64,000 bases of DNA from Callorhinchus milii (lineage: Eukaryota), in the NCBI RefSeq assembly GCF_018977255.1, contig NW_024704742.1, positions 126,854,001 through 126,918,000 of the forward strand. The letters run 5' to 3'. The notes beneath the pieces were generated by a model that saw nothing but the letters and a program-made list of their open reading frames with translations, did not search any database and had not been told where the DNA came from. Of the stretch, positions 1 through 59,982 are shown piece after piece (the first letter of the stretch is position 1; each line of letters begins with the position of its first letter). The translations under genes and the position numbers were made by a program.

Positions 1-1272
1 TTCATCAATCTTAGTGAGCAACAATTCTGATCCAGCTTCTAAGCCACTGACTAGTCCAAGTGTGCCTTCGGATTCCTTTTCACAAATAATGAAGGTTTCC
101 CCTTTTTGTTCGTTCAAACACATTTCGTCTGCAGTATCTACTGAAGGCAGCAAATTATGCTTATGTCTTGTTGAGGATATGTAGGTGGAAACATCAATCC
201 CCATACTCTGTAACTGGTAACATTTGGTGGAGAAGAGATCCCAGTGTTCAGGACTGGTACACATTGCTATAATGGGTCTTGGTTCTCCTATTTGAATGTT
301 CCCCATCAAATCTGATCGATACGTTTCCTTGATATGGAACAGGTGTTTAATGTCATCAAAGCAATCATCCTTAGATAAAAGACTATAAATGATATTTTCT
401 ATATTTTCATTGAATTCTTCAGGAACATTGTAAAAGCACAGCATTACATCTTGTGGGTCTATTACTTCATCCAACTCGTGCAAAGTAATTAAGTCACTTG
501 ATGACTGAAATCTATTTCTCAACCACTGTATTTCATTTAACATAGCATCTACACAAATGGACACTTCATCCACTGAACCCTTTAGCGAAGACATCTGGGT
601 TTGTAAGTCTATAATGCCTTTGTATATTTTATTAATTCCATGCAACTCTTTAAGTATAAATTCAACATTATCCTCTGACTGGTTTAGTGAGTACTTATTA
701 TCTAAGCAAAATCTGTAAGCATCAACAGTTCGATCAGCACTTATGTCAGGTGCATCAATGAGCAGATCTTGACTGTTTAACTCACTGAATATTTCTTTGT
801 GGTTAAATGTTTGCAAACCATTAATCCATGGAGTGTTGTCCAGAGGTTCTCTATTTGGAAAACGAGTCCTATTTTGTTCGACTGCATCTTGGCCTTTTGC
901 ACAATCATTCATTATTTGTTTCTCCATATTACATACTGTTGCTGGCAAATTACCTTCTTTGCCTGTAGAAGACTTGAAGCCTATTCGTTCATAGCTGGAA
1001 TCCACAGTCTTTAGATTCTCTGATTTGAGGCCACATACAAACATATCAGTTTCAATTTCAACAGAAGGACGGCAGTCTCTGAATCTGGACAAGTTAATAT
1101 CTCTACTGTATCGTAATACTCTCTGCATTTTGTGCTTCAGACTTAGTGAAATGTTGGACTTTGGAAGTTTCTTTTTCTTCAGGGTTTTTGTCTTAGATGA
1201 TTTGAATTTAAAAGGAATAGTAATGCTCTTTTTCCTTTTTAAATTGTAAATTTCATTTCTAGAAAACATCAT
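1..1272 (-). CDS. UNC13B: Brain-isoform (bMunc13-2-type) alternative N-terminal exon, partial; runs off the window start
   Basis: Open frame 1272 to 1 with no stop, absent from ORF track; ATGs at 1272/1269 and 1128 (MQRVLRYS, cf. recalled rat MKRLLRES); DNVEFILKELHGINKIYKGIIDLQTQMSSLKGSVDEVSICVDAMLNEI matches recalled bMunc13-2 DVVEYIIRELQGISRL...GSVDEVSSCVDSVLSEI. Confidence 0.9.
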   Translation of the reverse strand, partial: MMFSRNEIYNLKRKKSITIPFKFKSSKTKTLKKKKLPKSNISLSLKHKMQRVLRYSRDINLSRFRDCRPSVEIETDMFVCGLKSENLKTVDSSYERIGFKSSTGKEGNLPATVCNMEKQIMNDCAKGQDAVEQNRTRFPNREPLDNTPWINGLQTFNHKEIFSELNSQDLLIDAPDISADRTVDAYRFCLDNKYSLNQSEDNVEFILKELHGINKIYKGIIDLQTQMSSLKGSVDEVSICVDAMLNEIQWLRNRFQSSSDLITLHELDEVIDPQDVMLCFYNVPEEFNENIENIIYSLLSKDDCFDDIKHLFHIKETYRSDLMGNIQIGEPRPIIAMCTSPEHWDLFSTKCYQLQSMGIDVSTYISSTRHKHNLLPSVDTADEMCLNEQKGETFIICEKESEGTLGLVSGLEAGSELLLTKIDE

Positions 1273-12342: not shown

Positions 12343-13120
12343 CTGTAGACAAAATCAGAAAGTTTAGCTACTAACTCAAAGCTGTTGCACCAAAGCTTAC
12401 ATGTATAGTGCATAGCAGTCATTAATAATCGGTAGTTTAGCAGTACTTGAATATGATATTTTGCAGCCAATGTATTTGACCCCAATTTGCAAACCATTCT
12501 GAATCATTTTCTCATACATGTTCCAAAAAACATCAATTGCCTATCCATCAGAAACATTTTGTGCAAGTAAATTTTAGGTTTGATTCAAGAATTCCTGGCT
12601 TGTTCAATAATGTAGACTGTTATGCATACATACATAAACCTTAGTTAACTCAATTTTTTGTTTTGGTTCCTTTAATGATCATACTTCAGAGTATGTATTC
12701 AGTGGCATATATTAAGGAACGGTGACAAAACACAGCACCAAAAGCAGCAGGTGCTACTACACTTAGCACACTAAGGACAATACTGCCGCATGGTTACCTT
12801 CACAGAAAGCAAACTACAGCTAAAACTTCCACAAAGCACATTGTAAATGAACTGCACGTTTTGTATGTAAGACGTTTCAGTTGCATTAAATAGTAATTCA
12901 AATTATAGGTAATTAAACAGAGTCAGAGGACTGCCATAATGTTATGGCATAACGTAAGAAAAGTAGATATTTTAACAGGAATAACATACAAACAATTAAA
13001 ATGCAAGGAGAAAGGTTTCAAACAAAAAACACCAAACTACTTCAATATGCCTACTTTATAAATTGCATTATAAATGGTCAACCTACTGGTGCCATTTATC
13101 ATGCGTAAGCTAAGACTGGC

Positions 13121-16100
13121 CTTTTCGCATTCAAAAGGTCCGAACTCTTGAAAGCTTTCTGCTGTGATGCATGGTGGAGCTCTGGAGATAAGTAGGTCTC
13201 AGTGGAAACATCGGTTTCAGTCTCAGTTGTCTTCTCCAAATGTATAGTAACTTCTTCAGATGGCTCCTTTGCATGTAATTCTGAAGCTATTATCTCAGAA
13301 CTACTTTGAAGAGCAGCAATTGAGGCAGTCTCTAGACTTCCTGACAAAAGATTAGCCTGATCATTCAGGGAACTGCTCTGACTTTTGTTTTCAACACTAC
13401 CTACCTTTTCAGACTCTCCTACAATGACCTTATCTGTTAATATACTGCTTTCACTTTTGGTATCTATACTGTGACTAAAGTCTGGAATGGCGTGAGAACT
13501 CTGTCCACTATCATCTCTTGCTACAGGTTGTTTTGTGACTACTGTATGCTCTTGTTTAGCAGCGCTCTCTTTCTGCCAAGGAAAGTGGTCCAGTTTTCCA
13601 AAGACAGATCCCTGTGTGGAATCCTGTGCTTGGCCATTCTCTGCATCAAAAAATGTCTTGGAAAATTTCTTAAAACTAGATAACAAACCAGTTTCCCTGG
13701 ATGGGTCGCTCATAGGAGATGGTTGCTGTGAAAATAAACTGAATGGCTTGCCACTTTCTCGGGAAGACAAAAAACTGAATTTAGATGTAGCAATGCTGGG
13801 AATTTCAAAAACAGATTTCGTCGTCCCATAATCAGCCTTCTGTGGAGTTTTATTTGTTAGTGAGCCATAAGAGGCTGGTCCATCCAAAACCTTGGAATTC
13901 ATTTGCAAAGTGGGTTGATCATTTAGAAGATCTTCAGACTTAACATCTAGCACTAATTCTTGACTGGAACTTCCCAGCTGTGAAATGTCTCCACTTGCTG
14001 CATCAGGAATAAACACATTATCAGGAACATCTTCCACCTCTTCACTTTGCTGTGCATCCGAAACAAGAAAACCTTCACCTGCAACTAAAATATCTGGGTC
14101 TTCTGGCTCCATTGTGTTGCTGGGCATTACTTGACTTGTATCTTCAGTATTGACTGATTCGTTTTCAAGGACTTGGACATCAGTGCTTTCGTAGTCACAT
14201 TGGGTATTATTTTCAATGTAATAATTTTCTGATTCCTGCTCTGATAAAGTGCCAGCAATATTACTGTGAGAAACATCAATAGGCATTTCTTCGATTGTTT
14301 TGAGTGGGTCACCTATACTTTGAGAATTGTTACAAACTTCAAATGTATCAGCTTCTTTTTGCACGAAAGAGGTTTCTAAATTTGCAGCTGGATTAGTTTT
14401 TTCAGCAGGTACCTTAAAAAGGCTAAACAAATCAGGTTTTACAGATGGCATCTGGCTATTATTGTGCGACAAGTTAAAAAAAGTGCTTCTTGGTTGAGCA
14501 CTTGGTCCTGAACTTGAGTTTGCAAACAGTGATGGAAACGAAGTGGTTGAGGTTTTCATAGATTCACTCCCACTGCTAGAAAATAACTTCACTTTTGTCA
14601 TAAAGCCCGAAAACACTTCCATTGAGGAGCCTATTAAAGACTTTTCACCTTCAGACAACTTCTCCCTTGCTTTAAAATCAGTCAGTCCATCAACAGTTGG
14701 GGTTTTCGGAGATTCACACTTTTCATTTAACAAGTTGTTGGATGTATCCACTTGAGAATATTGCGGTTCTGAAACAATCCCTCTTTCTACAACAATCTCA
14801 TCCGAATTGTTTTTCATCTCAATCCCCAAGTCAGAGGCTTCTATATCAGTCTCTTCTGCCAAATTTGGGAGATAGGTTTCAACTTCTGTAGTCCAGGCTT
14901 CATCTGTGTCTGTAGCATTAGCAGGGAAACTATTCTCAGTGTTGTAATCAACGTCAATGTAATCTGCTGTAGGACTCTCATCAATATCAATGTGTTCTGT
15001 AATAGGTCTCTCATCAATATCAATGTGATCTGCTGTCACACTCTCATCAATGTCAATGTGATCTGCTGTAGGACTCTCATCAATGTCAATGTGACCTGCT
15101 GTCAGATTTTCATCCAAAATGTTTTCTGCGGAAACACAGTCCCTAGTATCAACATTATAAACATCATGATGACATGGTACATCTGGGATACTTCTGCTTT
15201 CCATGGGATCTGAATACATGAAGTTTTTAGTAGCAATGATACCTCTATCACAAACATTGTTGGCTATTTTAACTTCACCATTTTCATTAGTTGTCAACGA
15301 ACTTTGCAAAGTGGGTGCACCTAAATCATTATTGTTATAAGTTAAAGGGACCTTTTCCTGCAGAACTGATGTTATTATGTCCACCTCTGGTACACCTTTC
15401 CTGTCTTCACTGCCAGGATCTCTCAAACTGCCAGCAGATAACACATCTCTCTGCCTTGCAAACAAGCCAGCATTATTTTCAGTGGATTCTGAGCAACTTT
15501 GCTTGGAAGGCTCTGGTTTTGTCCTTTTCTCATCCTGAAATGTCAAGTTCAAGAAACTAAAGCTGGAGCTGCTTTCCTTTGGTTTTCTCTCCTCAGCTGG
15601 AGGAGTGGATGAGAAGAACGACGGTAATTTGAAAAATCCTTCTGAGCTGCCTGTCTGCCTAGCTCCAGGAAATGATGCATTACGACTAGGGGTTTGGGTC
15701 TGACTTGCTTGGTCTGTCCCACTGAAGAAAGAAAATAGGCCTTTGTTTGTTCCCTGTTGTTTGGAACTTGAGACATTTGGAAGTTTCCAATCTCCTGCTC
15801 CAAAGGGTAAACTAAAGAGACTGGATTGTTTGGGTTTTTGCTCCTGTTTTCCTGCCTTTGATGGAGAAGCAAATCCACCAGTTTGATTTTCACCACCTCC
15901 TTGAACCTTCGTAGAAACCTGGGAATTAACGTTTTCTGAACTAAACTTATTATCCCAAACTGTGACTGTGGATTTCTTTCTAATATTTTGCTTTACGATG
16001 GGATCAGAAAACTCTGTTGTGGTGATATTTTGTGCAGCATTTATTTCAGTCCCAGGAGGGAGTTCAGTATAGTGCACAGTAGATTCATTGATTACAATTC

Positions 16101-19100
16101 CACCAGTATTTGGGGCAGATCTATTTTGATGCATAGAGGTTTTTTCTGCCTTATCCAAAGCACTTTGCACATTTACTGAGGTTATATCATTTGTTTCATC
16201 CACTGAAGGCACCATTTTAATTTCAGTAGTTTCAAAACCAATATTTGGTTCTCTTAGTGTTCGTTGCTTTTGCAAACTCTTTGACCTTGAGCATGGCACC
16301 TCAGGTCTTAAGGAAGCCAGAAGAGCATTCTCACGTTCGTTCTGCTTGGTGTTATCATGCACAATTTGTTCTGCAAATGGTAGCTTACTTTTATTTTCAT
16401 TCTTACTTGAATTCATTGCATGCTCTGGATGTTGAATTGGATCCATTCTGAAGAATCCTCCAATTGAGCCAAAGAGGGATGAGATGCCAGAAGGCTGTCT
16501 TTCTACATTAGGAACAGATTTCCCAAAATTGTTCTGCTCCTTTTCAAGTGTTTCGTTTACTCTCGACGGAAAAGTCAAGCCTGAAGAATTCTGCTCTTCT
16601 TTGGCACTGGCACTTTTAAAAATGTCAAAGAAACTAGAACTTCGAGTTCCCTCGCTTTTTGATTGAGTCTGACTTTCGGACATGTTAAAAAGTTTGAGAG
16701 GACTTTTGAAGAACGAGTCCTGTGTCGTCGAAGTGGGAATGTGAGGTGCAGTAGGCTGAGAAGATATCAGAGGTGGTTTGGCACTAGCATTAGATTTACT
16801 TTGATTTATCTTTGACATCCCCTCAGGTAATGGCTGCAACACACTTTCAGCTGAGGCCTCGGGATGTGGTAAGTGAGAGTGCAAAGAAGATGACCTAGCC
16901 ACATCTTGATCTGGTAATTTGCGTCTCTGATCAACAACAGATGGTTCGTCATCTGAAACACTTATTGTACTCTTCAAGTGACTGGACATTGATATTAAAC
17001 TTTTTAAACCAGATGCAAATATATTACTTGGTGTGTCATCTTGTGAAGTAATTGAAGGCTGTCTATCCCTAGCATTAGGCTTAGTCTTATCCAGATCATT
17101 TCTTAATAAAGGAGTGGTATCATTGGTCATGTCCATTGTGCTCTTTGATGGGGTGACTGGTGCCGAGTCTGCTAAAGCAGAATTAGAATCCACAGAACTT
17201 TCAACATTTTGTTTTCCAACAAGATCACCCAATGAAGAAAAGAAAGATGTTATCTTTTTGATAGGCTGTTGGTGCTCTTCAGGTTGCTTGATTTCAGAGG
17301 TCTTCTGTGTTGAAGAATCTGATAACTTAACAGAAGAACGAAACAGACTAAACAGTCCTGATGAGGTTGGCACTGATGTCATTTTTGGCTGCGATGTTGT
17401 AGTTGCATAATCTGAGATTTCATTTGCTAGTGTTGTCCTAGATTTAGATTGTTTCTGAGCTGACTGACTACCTGCGACGATTCGAAGATCAAAGGCAGTA
17501 TTCTGAAGTTCTCCGTGAAAATGTTCCATTTGTTCTTCAGAAGAAAAATCCATCCTAAGTTTTTTCAGCCTGCATGTTTTGTACTTTGACGAAAAATCAA
17601 GTGGTTCATCCCTATTCCATTCTATCGACTCTTCAAACAGTTGTGAAAAAGAATCTAAATTCTTCCTTACAAACTGGTCATTCCTTCCCCAAACCAGAGA
17701 AAGATCAAGAGGTCCATCGTCCATTTCAGATTCAATCTGCTCTTCTTCACTGTACCAGAACAAATCAAAATCATTTGAAATGGGCACCTTAAAACCACAT
17801 ACGGAAACCATGTCCTCTCCCAGTCCTACATCGCATTCACCATTCAATTGCCGATAATACTCCCACTCTTCCTGCTCTTCATCTGTCTCTGGTCTCCAAA
17901 CGTACACGTATTGGCCATTGGCATCAGTGAGCAAGGAATATATGTATTCACCATCGCTGTACATGTAGTAGCCATATTCCCCATCTTCTGAAGGCCACCA
18001 TAAGCCATTTTCAAGTAAAGTAAGCCAGTCTTGGTACTCCTGATACCCGCTGATAGAAAATTGATTTTCCCTTTCAGTCATTAATTCTTGTTCATTCGGA
18101 ATAAGCCAAGAAATTGCATTGCCAGAAGAGGAACTTAGATCCATTGGCATTTCAAGACAGGAATCAACAGTTCCATTGAGTTCTAACGAATTCCAATATC
18201 TCTCTAAAGTTTTGCTCAGGTTTTCTTCAGCAGAATTTGCATAATATGAAAATGACCTATAGGAATCACCTGATGCTACACTAAAGTCTAAACACTCAGG
18301 TTCCATAATGTTTTCAGTCCTATTGAAAAATAAATAGCTGCCATCTTCTGGATTAATGACCTCCTTGTTAGATAAATTTATAATATTACACATTTCTGTC
18401 CTGTTGCTCAACTCTCCATATGAAGCCTGGAAGGCATCACAAGCTGCAGTAGAAGCATCTGTCCAGATCAGATTGGAATCTTCTTGAGAATAAAATTCAC
18501 TGAATGCTTCAGTTTTTAATCCTGATTCAAACCGAATTAATTCTGGGTAACTTTGGAATGAATGTGGAGATGAATATATCGATGCTGCATCATTTATTGG
18601 TAATGAATGATATTCAGCCATATCGCTATATGAAGAATTCCAAGGAACCTTGTGTGCTTGTGCTCCGGTTGTAATTTGCTTGGGCCATTCTTGAAATTCC
18701 TGAGGAACATTTTTACAGTATTTTGTCAAAGCTTTAGCCTGCCAAGTACTCGATGCTGCAGGTACATCATTTGGACTCGAATTCTGCACAATATGAGAAA
18801 CTTTTTTCTCATATCGTTTGTCATTTCTGCTTTCTGACATGAGTGGCTGCTTTGAAGGCCACATTGATTGTGTCTGTTTATCAGTGTTCTCCTTCAATTC
18901 AGTTTGCTCATTACTGTCCTTTGGTTTGGAAGTAAAATGTTTAAACAAATTGAAGGAGGACGTTTCTTCATTCTTGTTCTCTGGTGTATTGACAGATTTT
19001 GTGAAAAACGAAGATAAATGATTGCCTTCACTTTGGATCTCATTTCTTGCTTTGCTGGCATCATCACTTTTATTCATGAATTTAAGAAAACCTAAAGGAC

Positions 19101-22100
19101 TGTCATTCTTACTCGTCTCCTCTGATTTCCTCGTTGCTGAATTGAATAAGCCTGAGAAAAATCCTGGCTGGTTGCTGTTTTCTTTATCATTCTCAGGTAT
19201 CTGGTTTGGTTTTACTGCCTCACTTTTATTTCCCAATTCTTCATTTTGTGCTACAACATTTTGATGAGATGAAATTAATGAAATATTTGACAAAGTTGAA
19301 CTTTTATTTATCTCACTTTCTTGCACTGCTCTCTCTATTTTATCTGGATGCTCTTGGTTGCCTACATCTTGTTTTAATAAGGATACATTTTCAGTTGAGG
19401 ATAACTTAAACAAGCCTGAAAGGAATCCTTGGTTTCCATGAATGATTTGTTGTGTGTCGGGAATACTGCTGTACTTTGTTTTTGCACTTCCTGATACGTG
19501 CCTTGGTTCTACAACATCGTGACAAGAGGGAGATTTTGTTGCATCTACAAATAGTACTGGTTTGTTTCGATCTTTTTGCACAACTGATGCATTCACCATT
19601 TTACCTGAATCTTCTTTATCACTCAATTCTTCCTTAGATGTGGACAGGCTTCCACTGGAAGAAAATTTAAGCAGGCTCGAGAAAAAACCTTGCTGGCTAC
19701 TATTTTGTTTGGCTTTTTCAGTAGTAACCTGTTTTTCAGTAGTACCTTGTTTTTCAGTGCCTTTCTCTGGACTTGATGAAAACCTTAAAACACCAAACAA
19801 GCTACTCTGCTTACTTTCTTTTTGTTGTTCACCAGATGTTCTTACACTGTCTGACTGTTTGGCATTCGTTTCTTTTGTTGCAGATGTTCTTTCACCTGTA
19901 GGAAATTTGAACATTTCTGAAAACAGGCCACCCTCAGATTTTGCTTCTTTTGGTTTTTCGGAAGCAACATTTTCAGATGAAAAGAAGGGAAGTTTTAATT
20001 TTCCAACCAGAGAGAACGTTTGATCATCTTTCATCCTTTCTTTCCCAACTCGAATGTCCTCTGTAGATTTGTAAAAAGGAAATCTTGAGACACCTGCAGA
20101 AGGATCCTCCTTGGGCAGAGTACTATCTGATGAAGAAAGGATAATTTGGCTGAATGACTTTTTCAGAGGGTTGAAAAATCCAAAATTAATTCCAGAGTTG
20201 TCAGCACTGTCAGGCTTTGATTGGGAAGAGGATTCCATTTTATCAGAAGCTTTTATGTCTTGTACTACTTCAACACTTCCAACATGATGAGGCACCAGCG
20301 TTTTAGCAGCTTGCTCATCTTTACTTCCCTGTGCTAAAGTGGGTGAAGATTGAACAGTTTCTGATTTGCTGCCCAACCCAATTGCAAATCCTGACTGTTT
20401 ATCTGAAATAGCCCCTTTTTGCTGTTTACTACTTAAATTACTATTCTGCTGCAATGAAGTGTCATCACAATCATCTTGCAAAGCGACACTCATTTCATTA
20501 GAATCAAGCATTTTTTCAAATCTTGGTGAAACTTTTCTTTCTTCACAAGATGAATTCAAAGTATGCCCATGGGTATCAAGATTAGCAGAACTGTTGGCCT
20601 GAAGTTCAGAAGTTTTGTGTTCTTTGTTCTGCCCAGCAGGTTTGTGAGAATCCTGAGCAGAATCTTTCTCTGTGAAGAATTTTAAGGGATTCAATTTTCC
20701 CAGGACTGAATCAATGATTGTATTTTGTGATGAAGATGATGACTGGTTCTTCACAATGTCATAGTCATTATGAGGAGCCGGTTGTATAAGTGAAGTAAGA
20801 GCGGTATTAATGTCAGCTTTCTTCTGCTCCGATGTCTCAGAAGTATTGGATGTAACTGACTTGCTGGTGTCAGCTTCTAATGCTCCTGTAGACTGCAAAG
20901 AAAAAGTTCTTTCCGCTTTATCTTCCATAGATGAAGGTGATGTGAAACTCCTGGACATTGACTTCGGAGAAAACAATTTTACAAGACCAGGGACTTCCCT
21001 ACTCTTTTCATCTTCATTTTCAAGGGAAGTGGGAACCATTTTTTCCACAGAGGCTGAAGACTGTTTTTTATTTCCTCCTACTTTTTCACCTATTGAATTG
21101 AATAAAGACTGCATGGTATTCTTTACTCCAGTCAAGTCTGGAATAGGGTCTAGTTTTTGATCACTATCATCACAATTAACATTTATCGAAGAGCCTTTCG
21201 GTCTCCTTTGTCCTTCTTGTCTTCTTGGTTGAAGACAGTCACCACTGTCTTCAACACTGCAACGTTGCAGGGTCTCATTTTCTCCTTGGGACTTTCTGAA
21301 AGTTCTGTTGTGTCTCTTTGGAAGTGAACCAAACTTGCTCATTTCTTCTTCTTTTTCAGCCAAGTATTCAGATACAGACTCCACCAAACACTGAAGTTCA
21401 TCCATTGCATCAACATACTCCTCATTCATTTCCTCACCTTGAGAGGAATGCAACTTTCCTCTGAACTCAGATTCTTCATCAAGGTGATGATCGTAGCTGA
21501 GCTGGTACTTTTTCTGAGGGCCATGCATTCCACGAAGATCATGTTCCCTGTACTTAATGCAAGGAACGGTGCTTTCATGCCAGGACTGTCCCATTAATAT
21601 ATCTTCCTCTTGCTCATCGTCAGATCCAAATGAGCAGCGAAGTTCATCAGAGCCACTGCTATCATACTCACCACAGATTTCCCCTAGTATCCTTTTCTCC
21701 AGCATCTGCTCATCGTACACTTCCTCTAGGCATTCATCTATATCTATCATGTCATCAGGTTCATTATGGAGCAACTGATTTTCTCTCCACTCATTACTTT
21801 TCACCATAGATCCATGTTCATATCCATTTAGTTGCTGGTTATATTGCTCATCTACTCCGGAAATGTCATGACTATATAGTACAGGATCACTTTGATTACA
21901 TTTCTGACTTTTAGATTTGATTTCAGGAAGGCCACTAAGGACGCCTTGCTCTGCATCAAGACTTCTTGAAAGCATTTTCAATGTGCCATCCTCTAAACTA
22001 TTGTATCTGCATTTCTTTTTCCTCCTCCTATCTATCGTATTGTATTCTTCCGGATAACTAGAGTGGCTGGGAACATGCGATTGCCCAGTTAAGGACCGGT

Positions 22101-22336
22101 TACACCTCAATGAGTGTCGCGGTACTCTTTCTGCACGTTCCCTGCATTGCTGACTTTTTCTGATCGCACAGCTCTTCTTTGCAGTTTCTTCTTGCCAACT
22201 TCTTTGACTTTCGACTAAAAAGTTTTCAATGAGCAGTTTCCCTAACTTGTCATATTTATGTTCCCACTCTTCCTCCCCAACTCCAGAATCGACTGGTATA
22301 ATTCTAACTCTCTCTTTAAATGCTAAAGCTTTTTGG
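13121..22336 (-). CDS. UNC13B: Giant (~9.2 kb, ~3070 codon) coding exon of a long UNC13B isoform; Ser-rich, probably mostly disordered
   Basis: Stop-free ORF 13099..22110 extends in frame upstream (QKALAFKERVRIIPVDSGVGEEEWEHKYDKL...) to a phase-2 acceptor ccttaccaAG at 22337; lies between two UNC13B exons on the same strand. Both boundaries are inferred; 3' end is a GC donor at 13120 or a stop at 13099. Confidence 0.85.
14948..15105 (-). repeat. Coding minisatellite, ~5 x 33 bp (11 aa, TADHIDIDESP-like) inside the giant exon
   Basis: Repeating unit ...ctctcatcaatgtcaatgtgatctgctgt... visible in DNA and protein. Confidence 0.92.
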
Positions 22337-22696
22337 CTTGGTAAGGATCAAAGTTTGTGTAAAGGTGTAGAGAACAAAATGATTTGGAAACAAACAGAAA
22401 AGGGTAGGATAAACAAAAAAGAATCACATTGAAAATCTCAAATCAGTAGAGAACTGAGAACACAAAACTAAAATGACACACTAAAAAAAACAAACTCATA
22501 TCAGATAAATACATTTTGCTAGGGCTGATGAGTAAATTTTCACTGGTTTGGTTCTTTTGATTTAAAAGTAGTTGTACCCTAAACATAGACATAACATATA
22601 TGAAAACATTAAAGGCATGCAAACAGCTGCCAATGGCCTTCTTCACAGCACCACAGTACACGGTAACATCAAGGCTGTAAAGAGAGCAGAACCCAC

Positions 22697-40193: not shown

Positions 40194-43100
40194 ATGAGTT
40201 TATCAAAGAAGCAGAAAGTGGATCCTGAAGGCCGAATATTCAACAACAACAAGATTCCATTTATAGCGCGCCTTTCACGTCGGGAGGACGTCCCAAGGCG
40301 CTGTACAGTTGGGTCAGGACCCGAGCAGGGGGGAAATGGTCAGGGGGAGGGAAGGGAGGGAGCGAGGAGTGGGTAGAGAGTCGAGAGGGGAGCTGAAGGC
40401 ACGGTCAAAGAGAAAGGTCTTGAGACCAGCCTTGAAGGACGAAAGGGAGGAGGCGGCGAAGGCACTGGGGGATGGAGTTCCAGAGCCTAGGCGCTGAGAG
40501 GCTGAAGACCCGGCCACCGATGGTAGGGCGGTTGGGGCGGGGGATGTGGAACAGACCGGAGCCAGAGGAACGGAGGGTACGGGCAGGTAGGTAGGGGGAT
40601 AGTAGGTTGGAGAGGTAGGAGGGAGCAAGGCCGTGAATGGCCTTGTAGGTGAGGATGAGGATCTTGAAATCGATCCTCTGGGGGATGGGGAGCCAGTGGA
40701 GGCGAGCGAGGGTGGGAGTGATGTGGTCCCGAAGCCTGGTGCGGGACAGTACACGAGCTGCAGAGTTCTGAATGACCTGCAGCTTGTGGAGGGAGGTGCC
40801 GGGAAGGCCGGCGAGGAGAGAGTTCCCATAGTCCAGCCTTGAGGTGATAAAGGCGTGGACCTTTCAGCAACGTGAGGGGTGAGGTAGTGCCGTAGTCTGG
40901 CGACATTCCAGAGGTGATGGAAGGCGGTGCCAGTTGTGGCGCGGATATGAGGGAGAAAGGACAGCTCAGGGTCGAACAGAACCCCGAGGTTCGACTGGCT
41001 TTGAGAGGTGGAGAGTGCAGCCTTGGATGCTGATGCTGTCAGCGCCTGAGGTGCGGAGGCGCTGACGCGAGCCAATTAGGAGGGCCTCAGTTTTGCGCAC
41101 GTTGAGCTGAATAAAGTTGTCTCTCGTCCAGGACTCGATGTCAGACAGGCAGCTGTCAGGACATCGGTGGTCGTGGAGTTGAGGGTAGAGGAGGAAAGGT
41201 AGAGTTGGGTGTCATCCGCATACATGTGGAAGTTAACCCCATGTCTGCGGATGATGTCACCGAGGGGGAGCATATAGAGGGTGAAGAGGAGGGGACCGAG
41301 GACAGAGCCCTGAGGGACACCGCACGAGACAGTGCGGGGGCCGGAGGAAAAAACATTCGTGGAAACAAAGTGAAGACGGTGGGAGAGGTACGACCTAAAC
41401 CACTCAAGGACAGGGCCTTGAAGGTTGAGGTGGGAGGACATGCGGTGGAGGAGGATAGCATGGTCGACCATATCGAATGCTGCCGATAGGTCGAGGAGGA
41501 CGAGGAGGCAGAGGGAGCCTGGTCATAGATGGTCAGGATGTCATTGGTGAACTTGACCAGGAGTTTCTGTGCTATGGGCAGCACGGAAACCCGACTGAAG
41601 GGGTTCGAATAATGAATGGGTGGAGAGGAAAGAGCGCAGCTGGGAGGCGACAACTCATTCCAGGACCTTGGACAGGAAAGGGAGGTTGGAGATGGGCCGG
41701 AAGCTTGATAGCTGCGACGCATCAAGGGAGGGTTTTTTCAAGGTGGGAGTGATGGTGGCAGTTTTTAAGGGAATGGGAACAGAGCCAGAGGAGAGGGACA
41801 AAGAATGGACTTCTAAATATTTTTGTACCAGTGTGGGTGGAAAAGCTATGCGCTTAATTTGCAAAGAAAGTGTGGCAGCGTTCAAAGACTACAACTTGAA
41901 TCGTCATTTTGAGAGCAAACATGCTTGCAAATATAAGAACGTTTCTGCCGAAGAAAAAGAAAAGAAAGCTGATGAGACGGTTGTTCGATTGCAAAGAGAG
42001 CAAAGCATTTTCACAAAACAATTTGCATCCCAGGATGAGATTACAAGAGTGAGTTACGTGATTGCACACAAAATCGCCAAGAGCAGCAAACCATTCTCTG
42101 AAGGAGAATTTATAAAGGAATGTCTGGTTGACTCTGCCTTGATGTTATGCCCAGACAAGAAAAAACAGTTTGAGAACATTAGCTTGTCAACGCGAACTAT
42201 TGTGAGATGTGTCGAAGATATCTCTGAGAACCTGTATCTGCAGTTAAAAAATAAAGCAAGCAATGTTGCATGTTTTTCACTGGCACTCGATGAGAGTTGT
42301 GATGTCAAAGACACAGCCCAGTTGATAATTTTTATTCGAGGTATCACCAAACATTTTGAGCTCACAGAAGAATTGGTATCAATGCAGTCAATGAAAGATA
42401 CGACAACTGGAGAAGATTTTTGGAGGCAGTGAATAAGTGCATCTTAAAATTAGGGAGTGGAGTGGAAAAAATTGGTGAATGTGACCACCACCGATGGAAG
42501 CCCAAATCTGATAGGTAAAAATGTTGGGTTACTGAAAATAATTCAAGATCAAGTCAAAGAAATAAATCCAGAACAGAATATTGTTTTTCTACACTGCATT
42601 ATCCAGCAAGAGGTCCTCTGTAACAGTGTTCTAAAACTAAGCAATGTTGTGGAAAGTGGTCAACTACTATCGAGTAAGAGGATTAAACCACAGGCAGTTT
42701 GTAACTCTGCTTGAGGAATTGGAATCCGAGCACACAAATGTTCTGTATCACACAAATGTAAGATGGCTTAGTTTAGGAAAGGTCTTGAAAAGAGTGTGGG
42801 AACTAAGAGCAGAGACTGATTTATTTTTGGATATGTAACAAAAAAATTTGGATTTCCCACAGCTGAATGACGCGAATTGGCTCTCTGATTTCACATTTGC
42901 AACAGAAGGGGGCCTTTGTGTACGATTTGTATCGCAGTGTCATGTCATTTATGACAAAATTATTTCTTTTATCGTGTCAGATAGGAAACTTTCCAACTTT
43001 GCAGCAGATTACCGTTTGCGATCAAAGTCTTAAAAAGTATACTTCGTTACTACTTGACTTACATGCCGAAGTTTCTCGCCGATTCCAGGATTTCAATTTG

Positions 43101-43488
43101 ATCAAAAATGACCTGTCATTGGTCTCTTCACGTTTCTCATTTGATGTTGACAAAGCCCCATTTGACCTCCAACTCGAGCTTATTGACCTGCAATGTGATT
43201 CATTGCTTGCAGAGCAATTAAAATCAGTGCCGCTTCCCAGTTTTTACGCCTCTCTTAATGAATATACCATTCAAAAAATAAAGGCTCATGGCCAGAGGAT
43301 GCTTGTGCTGTTTGGATCAACATATATGCGAGGAGAAATTTTCTGTGATGAAATTCAATAAATCAAAACATAGATCTGCGATGACTGATGACCACCTTGC
43401 AGCAGTTCTCCACATTGCAACAACGGAGACGATTCCTGACTTCAATTGTCTGGTTAACTCACATCAGCGCTTTCATTCTTCTCATTGA
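40194..43488 (+). pseudogene. Disrupted hAT transposase (GTF2IRD2/Charlie-like)
   Basis: MSLSKKQKVDPEGRIFN, then L2 insertion, then KEWTSKYF...ICKE...NLNRHFESKH...FSLALDES.D...TTDG...LHCIIQQ...VRWLSLGKVLKR...FGSTY; several frameshifts and stops. Confidence 0.92.
40245..41799 (-). mobile_element. L2-clade LINE (family A), 5'-truncated 3' end, inserted in the hAT transposase
   Basis: [25 protein letters not shown] and [10 protein letters not shown] motifs; 3' hairpin and (TTG)n tail. Confidence 0.93.
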
Positions 43489-47280: not shown

Positions 47281-47404
47281 CAAAGGGCAATTCAAAACGG
47301 GTGTCTAACAGGATTTTATGTGGTGTTGGACTTTTGGTTCCACAAATCTCATCGTCCTTCATTAAAACCTCTGCATCCAAAATTGTCCATTCTCCTGGTC
47401 CTTC
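47281..47404 (-). CDS. UNC13B: UNC13B coding exon, end of C2A region ([41 protein letters not shown])
   Basis: Manual translation; acceptor ttttaacAG, donor G|GTGAGT; 124 nt, phase 0 to 1; close to recalled mammalian Munc13-2 EGPGEW...[12 protein letters not shown]. Confidence 0.95.
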
Positions 47405-49148
47405 CTGTTAAAACATAAGCCCCAGTTAAATTCATGCTAGACCTAAGCAAAACATAAAAATCTTGCACCTTGAGTATTAAGAATATCAAAAGTAAACTCA
47501 ATGACTCACAATAGTTTCAATCATTTTCTGATACAAGATCATCCTTCTTTCATACCTAAATGTTTAGGTGCTAATATCCATTTTATACCCAAAATTTACA
47601 TTTTGAATCATTTGGCCAAAATGTTTGAGCTCATCGTATAAGAGATATCAGTGCTAGGAATGGATAATTTTATGAATATTTTAAATAGGAATGCTTGTGG
47701 GACACTGCTGTGTGCAATTGGCCACCCTGTTTCTCCCTCGAAATACACAGACAATTCACTTGAGACATCTCAATGATGTGATAAGGCGCTATATCAAATG
47801 TAAGGATTGTTATTATTATTATCAATTTTAAACTTCAATACCCAGTTTCAGCATCACGTACACCCGTGAGAAATATAATGTGAGTCAGCAGAGAAGCAAA
47901 GCATTTCTGCCCTCAAAACAATGCAAGTTAACCTTAGGCTCCAACTTTAACCAATCTAAATGATTCAATTTCCTTACCAGCTGCCTGATGGGCTCCTGAA
48001 TGCTGATTCAACACACATGAGCAGTGAACTTATACACAAACACAAATTGTACTGATGGATCAATGCTAACTACCCAGAAATGGCTAGACCCCGTACAAAC
48101 CTCCCATCAATAAATGGATCCCACACTAACTTATTATCCCTGACTAGATCCCATTCTCACTACTTAATCATTGGCGGGATCTGAACTCAGAATCGAGAGG
48201 TGAGTCGGCAATATGCTAAGACTCCAAAACCAACAGCCCCATTATTCTACTGAAACATTACTATTAATTACATATGCATCTTTGTCAAATTATGTTTCCT
48301 TTCTGTATAGAAGCCTTTCTGTATGGAAGTCAATTAAACACAATCTATGAAGGCACACTCAGTTACGCTGAAAGATTTAAGTGAGGCATTTTGACAAATA
48401 CACCAACATTTCCAATTACTGGTGGATGCACATTCTACATTAGCAGCAGTGAAAATAAAAGGCTTTTCACTATCACTTTCATTCAGACAATAATACAATC
48501 CTACCATATTGATTTTTAAATTACAATTAATACCACTGATCTATTATAAATTATTAATCTTTTCCTGAAGAAAGGAAGTGTTCACCACTGCGCTGCAAAA
48601 AGCACATCAAATGTGCCACAGGGAAAATGGATGACAGCAAAAAGAGAGCAGCTAATGTGTGGTATTGATTTAAACAAACACTCCTGGGCTTTTCACGTGT
48701 TAAATGTTTTTCGGAAAAGATCATTGTGGACTGAAGTGATCTTCCCTGCAGGTAAAATGCAGTCACAAAAATGAACTGGTCTGAGATTGACAGCTAGGAA
48801 AACAATTCCAGTTAATATGATGTAATAGCAACCAGTTTATTAGAAATTAAATCATATAAAAATAAGAGGTAAGAAGCTCTTATAAAAATAACATATATTC
48901 TCCAATTTTTTTAGTCAAACGTCGTGACTAGTTTTGTAGACAAAAACAACTAGTGAGGTCCCATGAAAAGCATTGAAGTGAATGGCCAACAAGTCTGGTG
49001 ACAGGAAGAAACATGCCTCTCTCTTTTTCAATAGTGCCATGGGATTGTTAACTGTTTTGCGAAAACTAACATCTGCAGATCTGTGCTCTTTTCTCCAATG
49101 ATACGATAAACATTTCTATTCTTACAAATGACAGCTGCACAAGAAAGG

Positions 49149-53340: not shown

Positions 53341-53819
53341 TTCTCTTTTTTGAATGGTACCCTTGGATCTTAAGCAAGCAATTGGGATTTGCTTTTAACA
53401 TCTCATCTGAAGCACTACACCTCCGACAACCTCAACATTGCACTGAACTGTCAGCTAAGATAATGAGCTCAAAAGCACAACTTTGCTTTTAAGACTAAAC
53501 CAATAACTTCAGTTGTTTCAAGAACCCAGTTCTGTAAAGTATACTGATGCAACATTAAACCATCAGTGGAGCATCACTTTTCTTTGCAATTAGTGAGTCA
53601 TACTTCATTTAATCACCCACGCAATAAAGTGTACAAAACTATGATAACCATGCTAATCAAAAGATGAGCACATTTGATGCCATCATAGCAAGATCTTTGT
53701 GACAGACATGGGATGCAAATAAAATTCCACTGTAGAGCTGCCACTTCCATCCCACAAGGTCATTTGTACTAAATACTCTGGGTTCCTCAGAAATACAAAG
53801 CACCACGGCATTTAGTGTT

Positions 53820-54530
53820 CAGAGGGTTTGGGTGTCCTTATACACCAGTCACAAATAGTATGCAGGTACAGCAACCAACTAGGAAGGCTAATGGCATGTT
53901 GGCCTTTATTGCAAAAGGGTTAGAATACGAGAGTAGGGAAGTCTTGCTGCAACTTTATAGGGCTTTGGTGAGACCGCACCTAGAATATTATGTGCAGTTT
54001 TCGTCTCCTTATTTAAGAAAGGACATACTTGCCTTTGAGGGGGTGCAGAGTAGATTCACTAGGTTACTTCCTGGGATGAGGGGATTGACCTATGAGGATA
54101 GGTTGAGTAAACTAGGCCTATATTCTCTAGAATATAGAAGAATTAGGGGTGATCTTATAGAAACATATAAGATTCTTATGGGGCTTGACAGAGTAGACAG
54201 TGTGAGACTGTTTCCCCTGGTAGGAGAACCTATAACTAGAGTCTTAAGATTAAGAGTCAGCCCTTTCGAACAGAGTTGAGGAAACACTTCTTCACTTAGA
54301 GGATAGTGAATTTATGGAATTCTCTACCCCAGAAGGCTGTAGATGCTCAGTCCTTGAACATATTCAAGACTGAGATTGATAGATTTCTAAAGGATAGAGT
54401 GATTAAAGGATATGGGGATAAGGTGGGCAGATGGAGTTAGGTTAAAAGATCAGCCATGATCTTATTGAATGGCGGGGCAGGCTCGAGGGGCCGAAGGCCT
54501 ACTCCTGCTCCTAATTCCTGTGTTCCTATA
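53820..54530 (+). mobile_element. CR1-clade LINE 3' fragment
   Basis: LQLYRALVRPHLEYYVQFSSPYLRKDI...RRIRGDLIETYKIL; CR1-type tail cctactcctgctcctaattcctgtgttcctat. Confidence 0.92.
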
Positions 54531-54545
54531 TTCCTATTGAATGTT

Positions 54546-57235
54546 AACAACAACAACAACAACTTGGATTTATATAGCGCCCTCCACGCCGGACGGCATC
54601 TCAGAGCGCTTCACAGTAACAAATCCCGGGGCCGAGCCAGAGGGAGGGGGAAGAAGGTGACCAAAGGCGCGGTCGAAAAGATAGTTCTTCAGAAGGGACC
54701 TGAAAGTAGGAAGAGAGGGAGCGAGGCGAAGGGAGTGAGGAAGGGAATTCCAGAGCCTCGGGGCATAGTGGCTGAAGGCACGGCCGCCGAGGGTGGAGCA
54801 GAGGACTCAGGGGATGAGGAGGAGGCCAGACCCGGAGGAACGAAAGCAACGGGTACTGTTTTGAGGAGAGAGGAGGTCAGAGAGGAAGGGGGGTGCAGAG
54901 GAGTGGAGGAATTTGAATACAAGGGTGAGAATCATGAAATCGATCTTCTCTGGGACAGGCAGCCAGTACAGTCTGGCAAGGACTGGGGTAATCGGAGAAC
55001 GTAGTTTGGTGCGGGTGAGAATGCGGGTGGCAGAATTTTGGATGATTTGGATTTTATGGATGGTGGTGGATGGGAGACCGGTGAGGAGGGCGTTAAAGTA
55101 GTCCAGCTGAGAGGTGACAAAGGCATGGACTAGGGTTTCAGCAGCCTTTGGAGAGAGGTATTTGCGGAGATGGGCGATGCGTTGGAGGTGGAAGAAAGTA
55201 GTGCTGGTGAGGGACCGGATGTGGGGGAGGAAGGATAATTTGGGATCGAACCTGACGCCAAGGTTGCGTACAGGTTCGGAGCGTTTTAGGGGTAGGTCGG
55301 GTAGCTGGAGGAGGTGAGAGCCGTGGGATTTGAGTCGTTGACGCGAGCCAAAGAGTATGGCTTCCGTCTTGTTGATGTTCAGTTGAAGGAAATTTGCGCT
55401 CATCCAGCCCCTGAGATCTGACAGGCAGGCTGACAGAACATCAGAGGACTGGGGATCGCAAAGAGAGGTGGAAAAATAGAGTTGGGTGTCGTTCGAGTAC
55501 ATGTGGAAATGTACCCCATGTCTGCAAATGACATCCTCAAGAGGGAGTATGTAGATCAGAAAGAGGAGAGGGCCAAGGATGGATCCTTGGGGTACCCCAC
55601 AGGTAACCGGGTGAGAGCGGGAGGAGAAGCCGTTTGTGCAGATGTACTCCTGGCAGTTCGTGAGGTAGGACTCGACCAGGCGAGTGCGGTCCCACTGAGG
55701 TGGATGACAGAGGAAAGGCGGTGGAGAAGGATGGCGTGGTCGACTGTGTCAAACGCCTCAGAGAGGTCCAGGAGGACAAGGAGGCAGAGGGAGCCCTGGT
55801 CACAGATAGAGAGGATGTCGTTTGTGACTTTCACAAGCGAAGTCTCTGTACTGTGGGCAGAGCGGAAACTGGATTGGAGGGGTTCGAAATGGAAGTGGGT
55901 GGAGAGGTGTGCGCGAAGTTGATTGACTAAAACGAGTTCTAAGACTTTAGCGAGGAAGGGCAGGTTAGAAATGGGGCGGTAGTGGTTGGGGTTTGAGGGA
56001 TCTAGGGAAGGTTTTTTGAGGAGGGGGCTGATGACAGCAGTTTGAGGGGGGCAGGGACTGATCCGGAGGTTGATGACTGGTTGATGACGTCAGCCAGTAG
56101 TGGGCAGAGGAGGGGGAGCTGGATGACCAGCAAGTTGGTGGGGAGGGGGTCGAGGCAGCAGGTGGTGGGTTTCATGGAGGTGATGCTGGGTGAGAGGGAG
56201 GAGGGAGAAATGGGGAGGAAGGAATGTAGGATGGAGGTGGTGGTAGGAGCAGATGATGGGGAGGGTAAGGGGTCAGAGGGGGGTTGGTGGTGGGTGACAA
56301 GAGGCAGTTGGATGAGGCTGCCTGGCGGATTTTGTGAATTTTAGATGAGAAGAAGTCCATGACCTCCTCGCACTTGGCATTGGATATGAAGATTGAGGAG
56401 GCCTGAGGGGGGGCAAGGAGGAGGCAGTGAGTGGTGGAAAAAAGGACTTTCGGGTTGTGTTTAGCCTCCAACACGAGGTTGGAGTAGAAGGCCGTTTTTG
56501 CGCGTCAGGGGGAGTTTAGGTGGAGGTTGAAATCGCCCATTATGAGCAGGCGCTCGGAGCAGAGGGACAGGGAAGAGAGTAGGGTGGAGGTGTCTGTATA
56601 ATAATAATAATAATAATCCTTGCATTTGATATAGCGCTTTTCACGTCGGGAGGACGTCCCAAAGCGCTTCACAGAACACACTGTAAAGTGAATTGACTGT
56701 ATATTTGTGGGCGAACGCGGCAGCCAATTGCGCACAGCAATGTCCCACAAACAGTCGTAGATTGAAAATGACCAATTTTATTATTGTTTTTTTTTTGGAG
56801 GGATTATTATTAGGCGTGTGGAGTAAGGAAACTTGCCCAAGGTTTCGCCCTGACTGGAATTGAACTCAGGTCTCTCGCTTGCAAAGCGAGTGCTCTAACC
56901 ACTGAGCTACAGGACTCCACATGGAAGGAGCCGGGGGGCTTAGGGGGGGCGATAGACCAGGAGGATTTTCAATGGGAGAGAGGGATAGAAGATGGTGAGG
57001 TGCTCGAAGGAGGGGAAGCAGCCAGAGGAATAGGGGTTAAGATCAACGGAGGCTTTGGAAATGAAGGCCACCCTGCCGCCACGTTGGTTTGGACGGGGGG
57101 TGTGGTGGAAGATGTAGTTTAATGGGGAGGCTTCCACTCGAGGGACGGGGTCATTGGGGGAGAGCCAGGTTTCGGTGAGCCCAAGAATGTCAGGATGAGG
57201 TTGTGGATGGTGAGGGCTTTATTTGTGAGAAAGCA
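54546..57235 (-). mobile_element. L2-clade LINE (family B), ORF2 remnant with APE endonuclease and RT, internally deleted and interrupted by a SINE
   Basis: LGLTETWL, LVYRPP and GDFNLH (APE); LLDLSEAFDTVDH and DTQLYFS (RT); (TTG)n tail at 54546. Confidence 0.92.
56598..56920 (-). mobile_element. Full-length tRNA-Ala(TGC)-headed SINE with Deu-like core and L2-derived tail, inserted in L2 family B
   Basis: Head GTGGAGTCCTGTAGCTCAGTGGTTAGAGC...TTGCAA...GAGTTCAATTCC (A/B boxes); core ctgtttgtgggacattgctgtgcgcaattggctgccgcgtt; (TTA)n tail. Confidence 0.92.
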
Positions 57236-58699: not shown

Positions 58700-59982
58700 T
58701 CTGTGACCATCTGCGACCAGGGCTCCCTCTGCCTCCTCGTCCTCCTCGACTTATCGGCCGCATTCGATACATTCGACCACGCTATCCTCCTCCACCACTT
58801 GTCCTCCCACCTCAACCTTCAAGGCCCTGTCCTTGAGTAGTTCAGGTCGTACCTCTCCCACCGTCTTCATTTTGTTTCCACAAATGGCTTTTCCTCCAGC
58901 CCCCGCACTGTCTCGTGCGGTGTCCCTCAGGGCTCTGTCCTCAGTCCCCTCCTCTTCACCCTCTATATGCTCCCCCTTGGTGACATCATCCGCAGACATG
59001 GGGTTAACTTCCACATGTATGCGGATGACACCCAACTCTACCTTTCCTCCTCTACCCTCAACTCCACGACCACCAATGTCCTGACAGCTGCCTGTCTGAC
59101 ATTGAGTCCTGGACGAGAGACAACTTTCTTCAGCTCAACGTGTGCAAAACTGAGGCCCTCCTGATTGGCTCGCGTCAGCGCCTCTGCACCTCAGGCGCTG
59201 ACACCATCAGCATCCAAGGCTGCACTCTCCACCTCTCAAAGCCAGTCACGAACCTCGGCGTTCTGTTCAACCCTGAGCTGTCCTTTCTTCCTCATATCTG
59301 CGCCACAACTGGCACCGCCTTCCATCACCTCTGGAATGTCGCCAGACTACGGCACTACCTCACCCCTCACGCTGCTGAAACTCTGGTCCACGTCTTTATC
59401 ACCTCAAGGCTGGACAAAAGGAACTCTCTCCTCGCCGGCCTTCCCGGCACCTCCCTCCACAAGCTGCAGCTCGTGTACTGTCCTGCACCAGGCTTCGCGA
59501 CCACATCACTCCCCATCCTCGCTCGCCTCCACTGGCTCCCCATCCCCCAGAGATTCAAGATCCTCATCCTCACCTACAAGGCCATTCACGGCCTTGCTCC
59601 CTCCTACCTCTCCAACCTACTATCCCCCTACTTACCTGCCCGTACCCTCCGTTCCTCTCTCCGGTCTGCTCCACATCCCCCACCCTAACCGCCCTACCAA
59701 CGGTGGCCGGGCCTTCAGCCTCTCAGCCCCAAGGTTCTGGAACCCCATCCCCCAGTGCCTTCGCCTTGCTTCCTCCCTTTCCTCCTTCAAGGCCGGTCTC
59801 AAGACCTTTCTCTTCGACCGTGCCTTCAGCTCCCTTCTCGACTATCTACCCCTTCCTCGCTCACTCCCTTCCCTCCCCCTGACCATTTCCCCCCTGCTTG
59901 GGTCCCGACCCAACTGTCCAGCGCCTTGGAACGTCCTCCCGACGTGAAAGGCGCTCTATAAATGAAATCTTGTTGTTGTTTC
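58700..59982 (+). mobile_element. L2-clade LINE (family A), 5'-truncated
   Basis: Closely similar to the reverse complement of ~40245-41530; YADDTQLY; tail gacgtgaaaggcgc...ttgttgttg. Confidence 0.93.

Follow-up and report, generated by a model that had tools for sequence, protein, structure and literature searches.

The 64,000-nucleotide stretch of the Callorhinchus milii genome analyzed here (the window) bears on its minus strand part of UNC13B, a gene for the core presynaptic priming factor Munc13-2, and its left edge cuts through the large first exon of the brain-specific form known as bMunc13-2. The 5' part of this single-exon N-terminus lies at 1..1272 (-), with a first pair of methionines at 1272/1269 (MMFSR, comparable to the MMFARS or MFSRN of relatives) and the database start at 1128. 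The reading frame is stop-free from 1308 (-), exits the window at base 1 and continues to C1:126852723 on the contig, closing after 861 codons. A 1933-residue database protein links it to C1, C2 and MUN domains; the genome holds three exons for Munc13 C1 domains, and one lies downstream of the frame, about 18 kb beyond the left edge of the window. Upstream, a C2A-region exon at 47282..47407 (-) shows 79% identity to a pair of fish Munc13 proteins having either C2A motifs or an alignment to the paralogue's C2A exons. Based on the C1 exon downstream and the C2A-type exons upstream, we assign the gene to UNC13B and the large exon to the bMunc13-2 type; the exon at 47282..47407 shows that UNC13B bears both kinds of N-terminus. 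The large exon follows the C2A exons and precedes the common C1-C2B-MUN exons, unc-13 homolog B is the name given to its orthologs from anole, horse and electric eel, and it contains a coil and blocks resembling the calmodulin sites reported at 572-594 and 719-742 (PMC7017353), which are matched here by position only. Splicing of the exon into the full protein in Callorhinchus milii is predicted from the database gene model and the published rodent protein (PMC5379939). Contigs from four sequencing runs cover the exon with no joints and no loose ends, and are silent on splicing and expression; a word-indexed search with the exon gave its own product as the sole match (1 of 221 candidates). One sequencing-run contig misses 2 bases near window position ~155, just 3' of the domain described below, which would shift the frame; the other three runs are without this gap or without coverage there, and it may represent an allele or an assembly error.

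Analysis of the exon confirmed that the segment 672-184 (-) codes for a coiled coil followed by a non-canonical RRM. The translation of 672-190 (-) yields 161 residues (DNVEFILKELHG...EIQWL, then MLCFYNVPEEFNENIENIIYSLL...HIKETYRS...GEPRPIIAMCTSPEHWDLF...LQSMGIDV), identical to those in which the original prediction had seen a heptad-patterned helix followed by residues like those of ORF1p, the protein of the first open reading frame (ORF1) of long interspersed nuclear elements (LINEs). The coil (502..672, module residues 1-57; all parts are on the minus strand) is a helix over residues 2-57 in the predicted structure, with a predicted local distance difference test score (pLDDT) of 82-93 over residues 1-50, and by position and likeness to the paralogue it is the probable equivalent of residues 145-187 of rodent bMunc13-2. 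A poorly conserved linker follows at 448..501 (17% identity within UNC13B; pLDDT below 50 at residues 60-71), a stretch that continues the coil in UNC13C and in free ORF1p. The ORF1p-type RRM occupies 184..447 (module residues 76-163), as delimited by the model and by structure and profile matches. On alignment to the human ORF1p structure 2ykp, its P84-E85-x-x-x-E89 loop (406..423) corresponds to P164, E165 and E169, R119 (316..318) to R202, the partner of E169, and P131-R132 (277..282) to P214-R215, the partner of E165. By the profile of the ORF1p C-terminal domain (CTD), the sequence after the RRM (1..183) is devoid of this domain.

The AlphaFold2 model was built from 25 Munc13 rows with zero ORF1p rows and zero templates, and has a mean pLDDT of 74. 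It shows helices at 2-57, 59-70, 91-101, 108-111 and 142-156 and strands at 77-80, 114-119 and 134-138, i.e. a long helix and then a beta-alpha-alpha-beta-beta-alpha order in which the end of the query cuts the last strand. The coiled coil (model helix 2-70) thus directly precedes a single RRM, in the order and spacing of 2ykp. Human LINE-1 ORF1p comes first in structure searches with Foldseek, which the original prediction had proposed, and with VIA-align: its chains fill Foldseek ranks 1-11 (E 6e-3 to 6e-2), and in the VIA-align comparison with 48,161 chains just three reached Z>=8, every one of them ORF1p (Z 8.4-8.8; rmsd 2.1-3.0, with 79-86 residues aligned over model residues 72-161). The next 47 rows had Z<=6.4 and were nearly all coil-only alignments, the top one being a coiled coil. 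A homotrimer prediction made without the alignment gave no verdict (score 0.12 against a mark of 0.32), and a single-sequence model of the RRM plus 30 residues, with a pLDDT of 48, was not used.

Profile searches connect the same RRM to ORF1p at the sequence level. A profile of four UNC13B RRMs, containing neither the coil nor any UNC13C sequence, put four RRM-holding ORF1p sequences at the top of 177,635 PDB sequences, with weak E-values of 0.06-0.28. The UNC13C segment alone found human LINE-1 ORF1p as its best PDB sequence matches (2ykp, E 5.9e-5; the RRM-only 2w7a, E 0.024). The UNC13B RRM profile recovered a profile of 30 free, i.e. stand-alone, relatives with a probability of 99.0 and a pairwise E-value of 2.6e-18, and this profile in turn matched 2ykp (E 2.3e-15) and the RRM-CTD structure 2ldy (E 8.2e-11). 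An RRM profile of 7 UNC13B orthologs without the window protein scored above 15 bits on 105 of 150 search matches and on none of the 150 reversed sequences, the 150 having been chosen by a profile that contained the window protein. The ORF1p RRM has two salt-bridge pairs, E165-R215 and E169-R202 (PMC6428221), and the corresponding E85, E89, R119 and R132 of the window protein are invariant in 25/25 Munc13 rows as far as residue identity goes; they make up 4 of the 10 invariant columns among 86 RRM columns, for which the naive chance is 1e-4. These results show that the RRM is homologous to that of ORF1p. The ESM Atlas gave unnamed clusters from chordates and arthropods (0.90-0.91) and one of Baculo_FP_2nd (0.89), which we take as a lead only. 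Baculovirus FP25K is akin to LINE ORF1; one free relative (P0202) carries Baculo_FP_2nd, and the cluster of the same type stands at rank 8 in the ESM Atlas.

Beyond the segment itself, a genome search with it gave a single further real match, on contig C26 (36% identity across residues 2-160; E 4.8e-23), in a 1079-codon frame that is the N-terminal exon of UNC13C; the UNC13C module is 37% identical. A third match, on contig C22, had no RRM score and was rejected as a generic coiled coil. The original prediction had held the module to be specific to the N-terminus of bMunc13-2, where it is indeed present; however, since coil and RRM alike are common to UNC13C, it is not isoform-specific and predates the UNC13B/UNC13C duplication. 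Between 8 UNC13B and 17 UNC13C rows, mean identity reaches 47% for the coil and 31% for the RRM, against 4% for the linker. The UNC13C segment matches 445 proteins, and all 120 that were listed are UNC13C, from sharks to birds, with modules 76-100% identical; by region, UNC13C proteins are 96% identical over the coil window and 64-70% over the RRM, falling to 38-48% just downstream, and the identity of UNC13B proteins likewise peaks over the module. In trees of 7 UNC13B rows, 7 UNC13C rows and 40 free modules (the best-scoring among 63 of full length), UNC13B and UNC13C together form one side of a branch, both for the whole module (100/99) and for the RRM alone (99/100). A second common block, which lies some 400 residues further downstream where the calmodulin site is predicted, was recovered in 6/6 UNC13C exons at low scores (2.4-13.9 bits) and in 0/6 reversed ones. 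The big frames of UNC13B and UNC13C both close at a candidate phase-1 donor, and the small exon downstream has the same phases in all three paralogues; in UNC13B the big exon (phase-1 donor) and the small exon that follows (phase-0 acceptor) should have a mini-exon between them, but none was located. These data show a common origin of the module in UNC13B and UNC13C, i.e. one capture. UNC13A gave no coil or RRM match across 100 kb, from before its first exon to its C1 exon. Over 875 shared C-terminal columns, in an alignment led by UNC13B and with no outgroup, identity is 88.6% for A-B, 82.9% for B-C and 79.9% for A-C; this closeness of A and B in the C-terminal core hints that the exon may already have been present in the ancestor of all three genes.

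The module is present from sharks to mammals, and named UNC13B-type proteins with the full module come from basking shark, emu, anole and horse; in a gecko protein the RRM is cut short. Horse UNC13B reads LYLYGLPE...IREAYR...PRPTVVKL...HRDFIL, the order of motifs that the original prediction gave for the rat protein. As the UNC13B and UNC13C versions both occur in shark and mammal, the capture is older than the duplication into B and C and older than the divergence of sharks and bony fish among jawed vertebrates, about 450 million years ago. Structure, profiles and tree all support the original claim of descent from a LINE ORF1 before the cartilaginous/bony fish split. In emu, two 826-residue bMunc13-2 exon products are annotated on two large contigs; we would guess that these are perhaps sex-chromosome copies.

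A two-row profile run over 1.84 billion representatives gave 438 matches at E<=0.001. The best 150 of these comprise 9 Munc13 proteins with coil and RRM, 35 Munc13 proteins with the coil alone, 104 free proteins of 94-591 residues with the RRM and 2 others. The named free relatives come from soft corals, an anemone, oysters, a scallop, a limpet and a snail. Metagenome loci encoding relatives number 79; 24 have at least 2.5 kb downstream, and 17 of these 24 show a same-strand reverse transcriptase (RT) match about 1.6-2.5 kb behind, several of the RT-linked loci being near-copies of one family. Two further loci have an endonuclease or RT by Pfam. Behind the nearest ORF1s, the ORF2s end in C-termini of at least three kinds, which look like CR1/L2-group, RTEX-like and L1. 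The nearest free relatives are hence invertebrate LINE ORF1s ahead of an endonuclease-RT ORF2, from several LINE clades, and so the donor need not have been an L1; type II ORF1 is reported from the L1, CR1 and L2 clades (PMC4120745). Two free ORF1 queries over the Callorhinchus milii genome retrieved the UNC13C exon only (E 1e-17 and 2e-16), with no live element of this kind found. Two soft-coral proteins of 265-267 residues (P0295, P0311) are labelled 'protein unc-13 homolog C-like', yet they belong to the stand-alone LINE ORF1 family and are not Unc13; the label most likely stems from their likeness to the UNC13C exon, and such labels can mislead hunts for invertebrate Unc13. Further, 3 of 48 scanned free ORF1-like proteins (P0174, P0187, P0192) have a C-terminal NADAR domain (E 1e-35 to 1e-42), so that an ADP-ribose hydrolase fold is joined to a LINE ORF1-like protein.

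Compared with type II LINE ORF1p (human L1; 2yko/2ykp/2w7a/2ldy), the Munc13 module has the same coil followed by one non-canonical RRM and the same P-E-x3-E, R, P-R signature, but lacks the CTD, the RhxxhE motif and ORF2, and it is a single-copy segment fused to a priming core of 1200 residues. The CTD profile scored at most 0.5 bits on 15/15 Munc13 N-termini, as against more than 15 bits on 113 of 119 free proteins, and the CTD has been lost from the Munc13 module. With just two real matches in the genome, both Munc13 exons, and no ORF2 in cis, the module is not multicopy and is derived from type II LINE ORF1p rather than a member of it. The likeness to LINE ORF1p of the L1TD1 type drawn by the original prediction stands for the order of coil and RRM, with two corrections: the CTD is missing, and the donor need not have been an L1. 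That the single large exon would fit a retro-origin carries limited weight: coil and RRM share one frame and one exon, but only ~165 of its ~850 codons are ORF1-like.

Based on these observations we propose that the segment is very probably a domesticated fragment of a type II LINE ORF1 protein, namely its coiled coil and RRM with the CTD lost, captured in the ancestral vertebrate unc-13 gene. A LINE would have inserted in sense orientation into an intron that separated the C2A exons of this gene from the common C1-C2B-MUN-C2C exons, and its ORF1 would have become part of a large alternative first exon. Gene duplication would then have produced UNC13B with both N-termini, UNC13C with the ORF1-type one only and UNC13A without the ORF1 exon. 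The ORF1 coil may have been reused, its role shifting from an oligomerizing stalk to a protein-docking coil that could anchor Munc13 without need of RIM, and the RRM would have been kept as a folded unit, in line with its invariant salt-bridge residues, most likely serving in UNC13B as a structural or protein-binding module.

Several results weigh against this proposal and are best considered with the alternatives that they favor. The first concerns the coil: a coil-only profile gave a median of 2.05 bits on 119 free ORF1s and 2.3 bits on reversed sequences, so that the ORF1 origin of the coil, which the original prediction had asserted together with that of the RRM, is drawn from its position, its frame and the continuous UNC13C alignment, while for the RRM homology is established. 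We regard it as unlikely, but worth keeping in view, that the RRM alone came from ORF1 and that host or intron sequence separately gave rise to the ELKS1-binding coil. Such an origin would account for the lack of likeness above reversed controls, for the occurrence of RhxxhE or KhxxhE, the former being the trimerization motif of the ORF1 coil (PMC5940361), in 0/25 Munc13 rows as against 23/30 free proteins (10/30 for the R-form), and for the ray-finned fish UNC13B proteins that hold the coil without the RRM. Yet coil and RRM share one frame, one exon and the order and spacing of ORF1; the free-ORF1 profile aligns to UNC13C as a single stretch (profile positions 16-229), the UNC13C alignment to 2ykp spans coil and RRM, and a weak likeness is to be expected given that ORF1 coils evolve fast (PMC5940361).

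It is a good deal less probable that UNC13B and UNC13C took up related LINE ORF1s independently, even though RRM-only profiles place UNC13C closer to free ORF1s (up to 70 bits) than to tetrapod UNC13B (23-32 bits), the two paralogues share 31% identity in the RRM and 4% in the linker, and repeated ORF1 exonization is reported in vertebrates (PMC12129022). The trees that join them come from short alignments (169 and 92 columns), are unrooted and without a vertebrate L1 row, and have a long UNC13B branch and, for the RRM alone, a bootstrap that had not yet settled. Nonetheless, UNC13B and UNC13C fall on one branch on the module and on the RRM alone, and they share the 47% identity of their coils, the second common block and the same site in the gene; with one capture, the position of UNC13C nearer to free ORF1s than to UNC13B requires fast evolution in UNC13B. 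Convergence, in which a generic coil would happen to stand beside a common ferredoxin-like/RRM fold, is slightly less probable again and is largely refuted already. The structural match has its own limits, with VIA-align scores (Z 8.4-8.8) that barely exceed what unrelated models can reach and a predicted template modelling score of 0.43 with an RRM pLDDT of 55-84. On the side of convergence are the Foldseek matches, all weaker than E 0.001, and the want of single-sequence matches: the window protein alone hits neither Transposase_22 (Pfam PF02994), the family suggested in the original prediction, nor a relevant PDB sequence, and a Pfam scan of the paralogue and four UNC13B RRMs gave no Transposase_22 either. 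This family is matched by just 1 of 48 free relatives, however, and a PF02994 scan of the genome, without a match, was uninformative, as its control was silent too. Against convergence, ORF1p ranks above all canonical RRM and ferredoxin folds, the ORF1p-specific salt-bridge residues are invariant, and the chain of profiles through the free relatives to ORF1p is unbroken. Least credible of all is the reverse direction, an old Unc13 host domain acquired by LINEs: LINE ORF1 domains are reported to be modular and exchanged (PMC4120745) and the trees give no root, but cnidarians and molluscs have the full coil-RRM-CTD form in several LINE clades, all named matches with the truncated Munc13 form are from jawed vertebrates, and the N-termini of worm and fly Unc13 are reported as unrelated (PMC8066380, PMC5379939). 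Neither of the outcomes that the original prediction had named as refuting it was seen: the profile and structure matches exist, and among the matches looked up the invertebrate proteins called 'unc-13 homolog C-like' are the LINE ORF1s described above and not Unc13.

Returning to the captured ORF1 module, its later history differs between the paralogues. Among 33 coil-only UNC13B-like proteins 11 were looked up, and since all 7 that are named come from ray-finned fish, the UNC13B RRM appears to have been lost in this lineage with the coil retained. A UNC13C-like protein of the cod family (P0131) has also kept the coil and lost the RRM, a second RRM loss in fish. In the window protein, the RRM has 6 lysines plus arginines and 15 aspartates plus glutamates and is thus net acidic; as a matter of composition only, lysines plus arginines number 6-11 in 8 UNC13B rows and 14-17 in 17 UNC13C rows, with a mean of 17.6 in 30 free RRMs. 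In view of the missing CTD, the few basic residues and the loss in ray-finned fish, the UNC13B RRM is unlikely to bind RNA and is rather a structural or protein-binding unit, whereas the still basic RRM of UNC13C would be the better candidate for binding RNA or acidic lipid.

With regard to the coil, residues 145-187 of rodent bMunc13-2 are reported to bind the C-terminus of ELKS1 and to bring the protein to active zones, while the coil of Munc13-3 shows no ELKS1 binding (PMC5379939). More speculatively, and with considerable doubt, we suggest that one ORF1 capture on the vertebrate stem, before the duplications that made UNC13A, UNC13B and UNC13C, might have created a second, RIM-independent mode of anchoring Munc13, the duplicates having since split the N-termini (UNC13A with C2A, UNC13C with the ORF1 exon, UNC13B with both); the coil might still oligomerize Munc13 or pair with ELKS, and the RRM of Munc13-3 might bind RNA or acidic lipid presynaptically. 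If true, this would be the first LINE ORF1 domestication with a defined role in neurotransmitter release and, to our knowledge, the oldest LINE ORF1 domestication.

The claim that the module is undescribed holds in part. Kitao, Ichiyanagi and Nakagawa (2025; PMC12129022; bioRxiv 10.1101/2024.04.25.591049 Fig. S6) had already noted residues 223-404 of mouse UNC13C as a coiled coil plus RRM resembling L1 ORF1p, on the strength of an AlphaFold model and of an MMseqs2 comparison with Dfam ORF1ps in a screen for ORF1p-like exons (Methods; Suppl. Fig. S8), and left UNC13C unanalyzed as 'outside of the scope'. Their exon is the same module, given in the parts of that paper examined without dating or a link to bMunc13-2, ELKS1 or the duplication; UNC13B and Munc13 have 0 occurrences in its main text, and UNC13B has none in the supplement text examined. 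UNC13 is likewise absent from the main texts of Frith 2022 (PMC9004415) and PMC13343379, and we found no literature joining UNC13B with ORF1p or Munc13 with retrotransposon domestication, though subscription papers were thinly covered and an earlier mention is possible. What is new here is the UNC13B case, its single old origin with UNC13C, the LINE (not necessarily L1) context, the pattern of losses and the placing of the published ELKS1-binding coil within the module. Kawabe et al. (2017; PMC5379939) report that the coils of bMunc13-2 and Munc13-3 are 52% identical and show conservation extending from fish up to human, with ELKS1 bound by bMunc13-2 only, and this paper and a 2021 one (PMC8066380) describe the rest of the N-termini as unrelated, with 54 residues in common and no homology to known proteins. 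The region shared between UNC13B and UNC13C here is longer, about 165 residues, and includes the ORF1p-type RRM.

The module is ORF1-derived sequence in frame within a host protein and orthologous across distant lineages, and it belongs with the known class of ORF1 fusion exons. Like Lyosin (ORF1p-MYL4), the RFX5, NUP42 and USP4 ORF1 exons and L1TD1, it is LINE ORF1 kept as host coding sequence, and Lyosin too is reported to lack the CTD with its RRM conserved (PMC12129022). The Lyosin, RFX5, NUP42 and USP4 exons are at most somewhat older than 280 million years (PMC12129022), whereas the Munc13 case spans sharks to mammals and two paralogues, lies in a core synaptic protein and has a coil with a published binding partner; L1TD1, unlike the Munc13 fusion, is a stand-alone eutherian gene. 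Known LINE ORF1 domestications are few, and those described in Kitao et al. (PMC12129022) include none with a settled molecular job. In the present case the module belongs to a core presynaptic priming factor and overlaps the coil that binds ELKS1 and targets bMunc13-2 to a subset of synapses. It accounts for N-termini called unrelated and homologue-free in the synapse literature and supplies domain boundaries, in mammals about residues 145-305; the ray-finned fish provide a natural deletion of the RRM.

Elsewhere in the window, 13099-22347 (-) holds a 3082-codon open frame within UNC13B, a giant exon with no Pfam match, short parts of which match two fish Munc13 proteins. Broken reverse-transcriptase fragments of L2- and CR1-like kind lie in introns at 40314-41737, 53773-56089 and 59029-59947, and two of them, used as queries, matched LINE ORF2s. 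Finally, at 41599-43361 (+), two frames of 277 and 164 codons resemble pieces of a hAT-type transposase.

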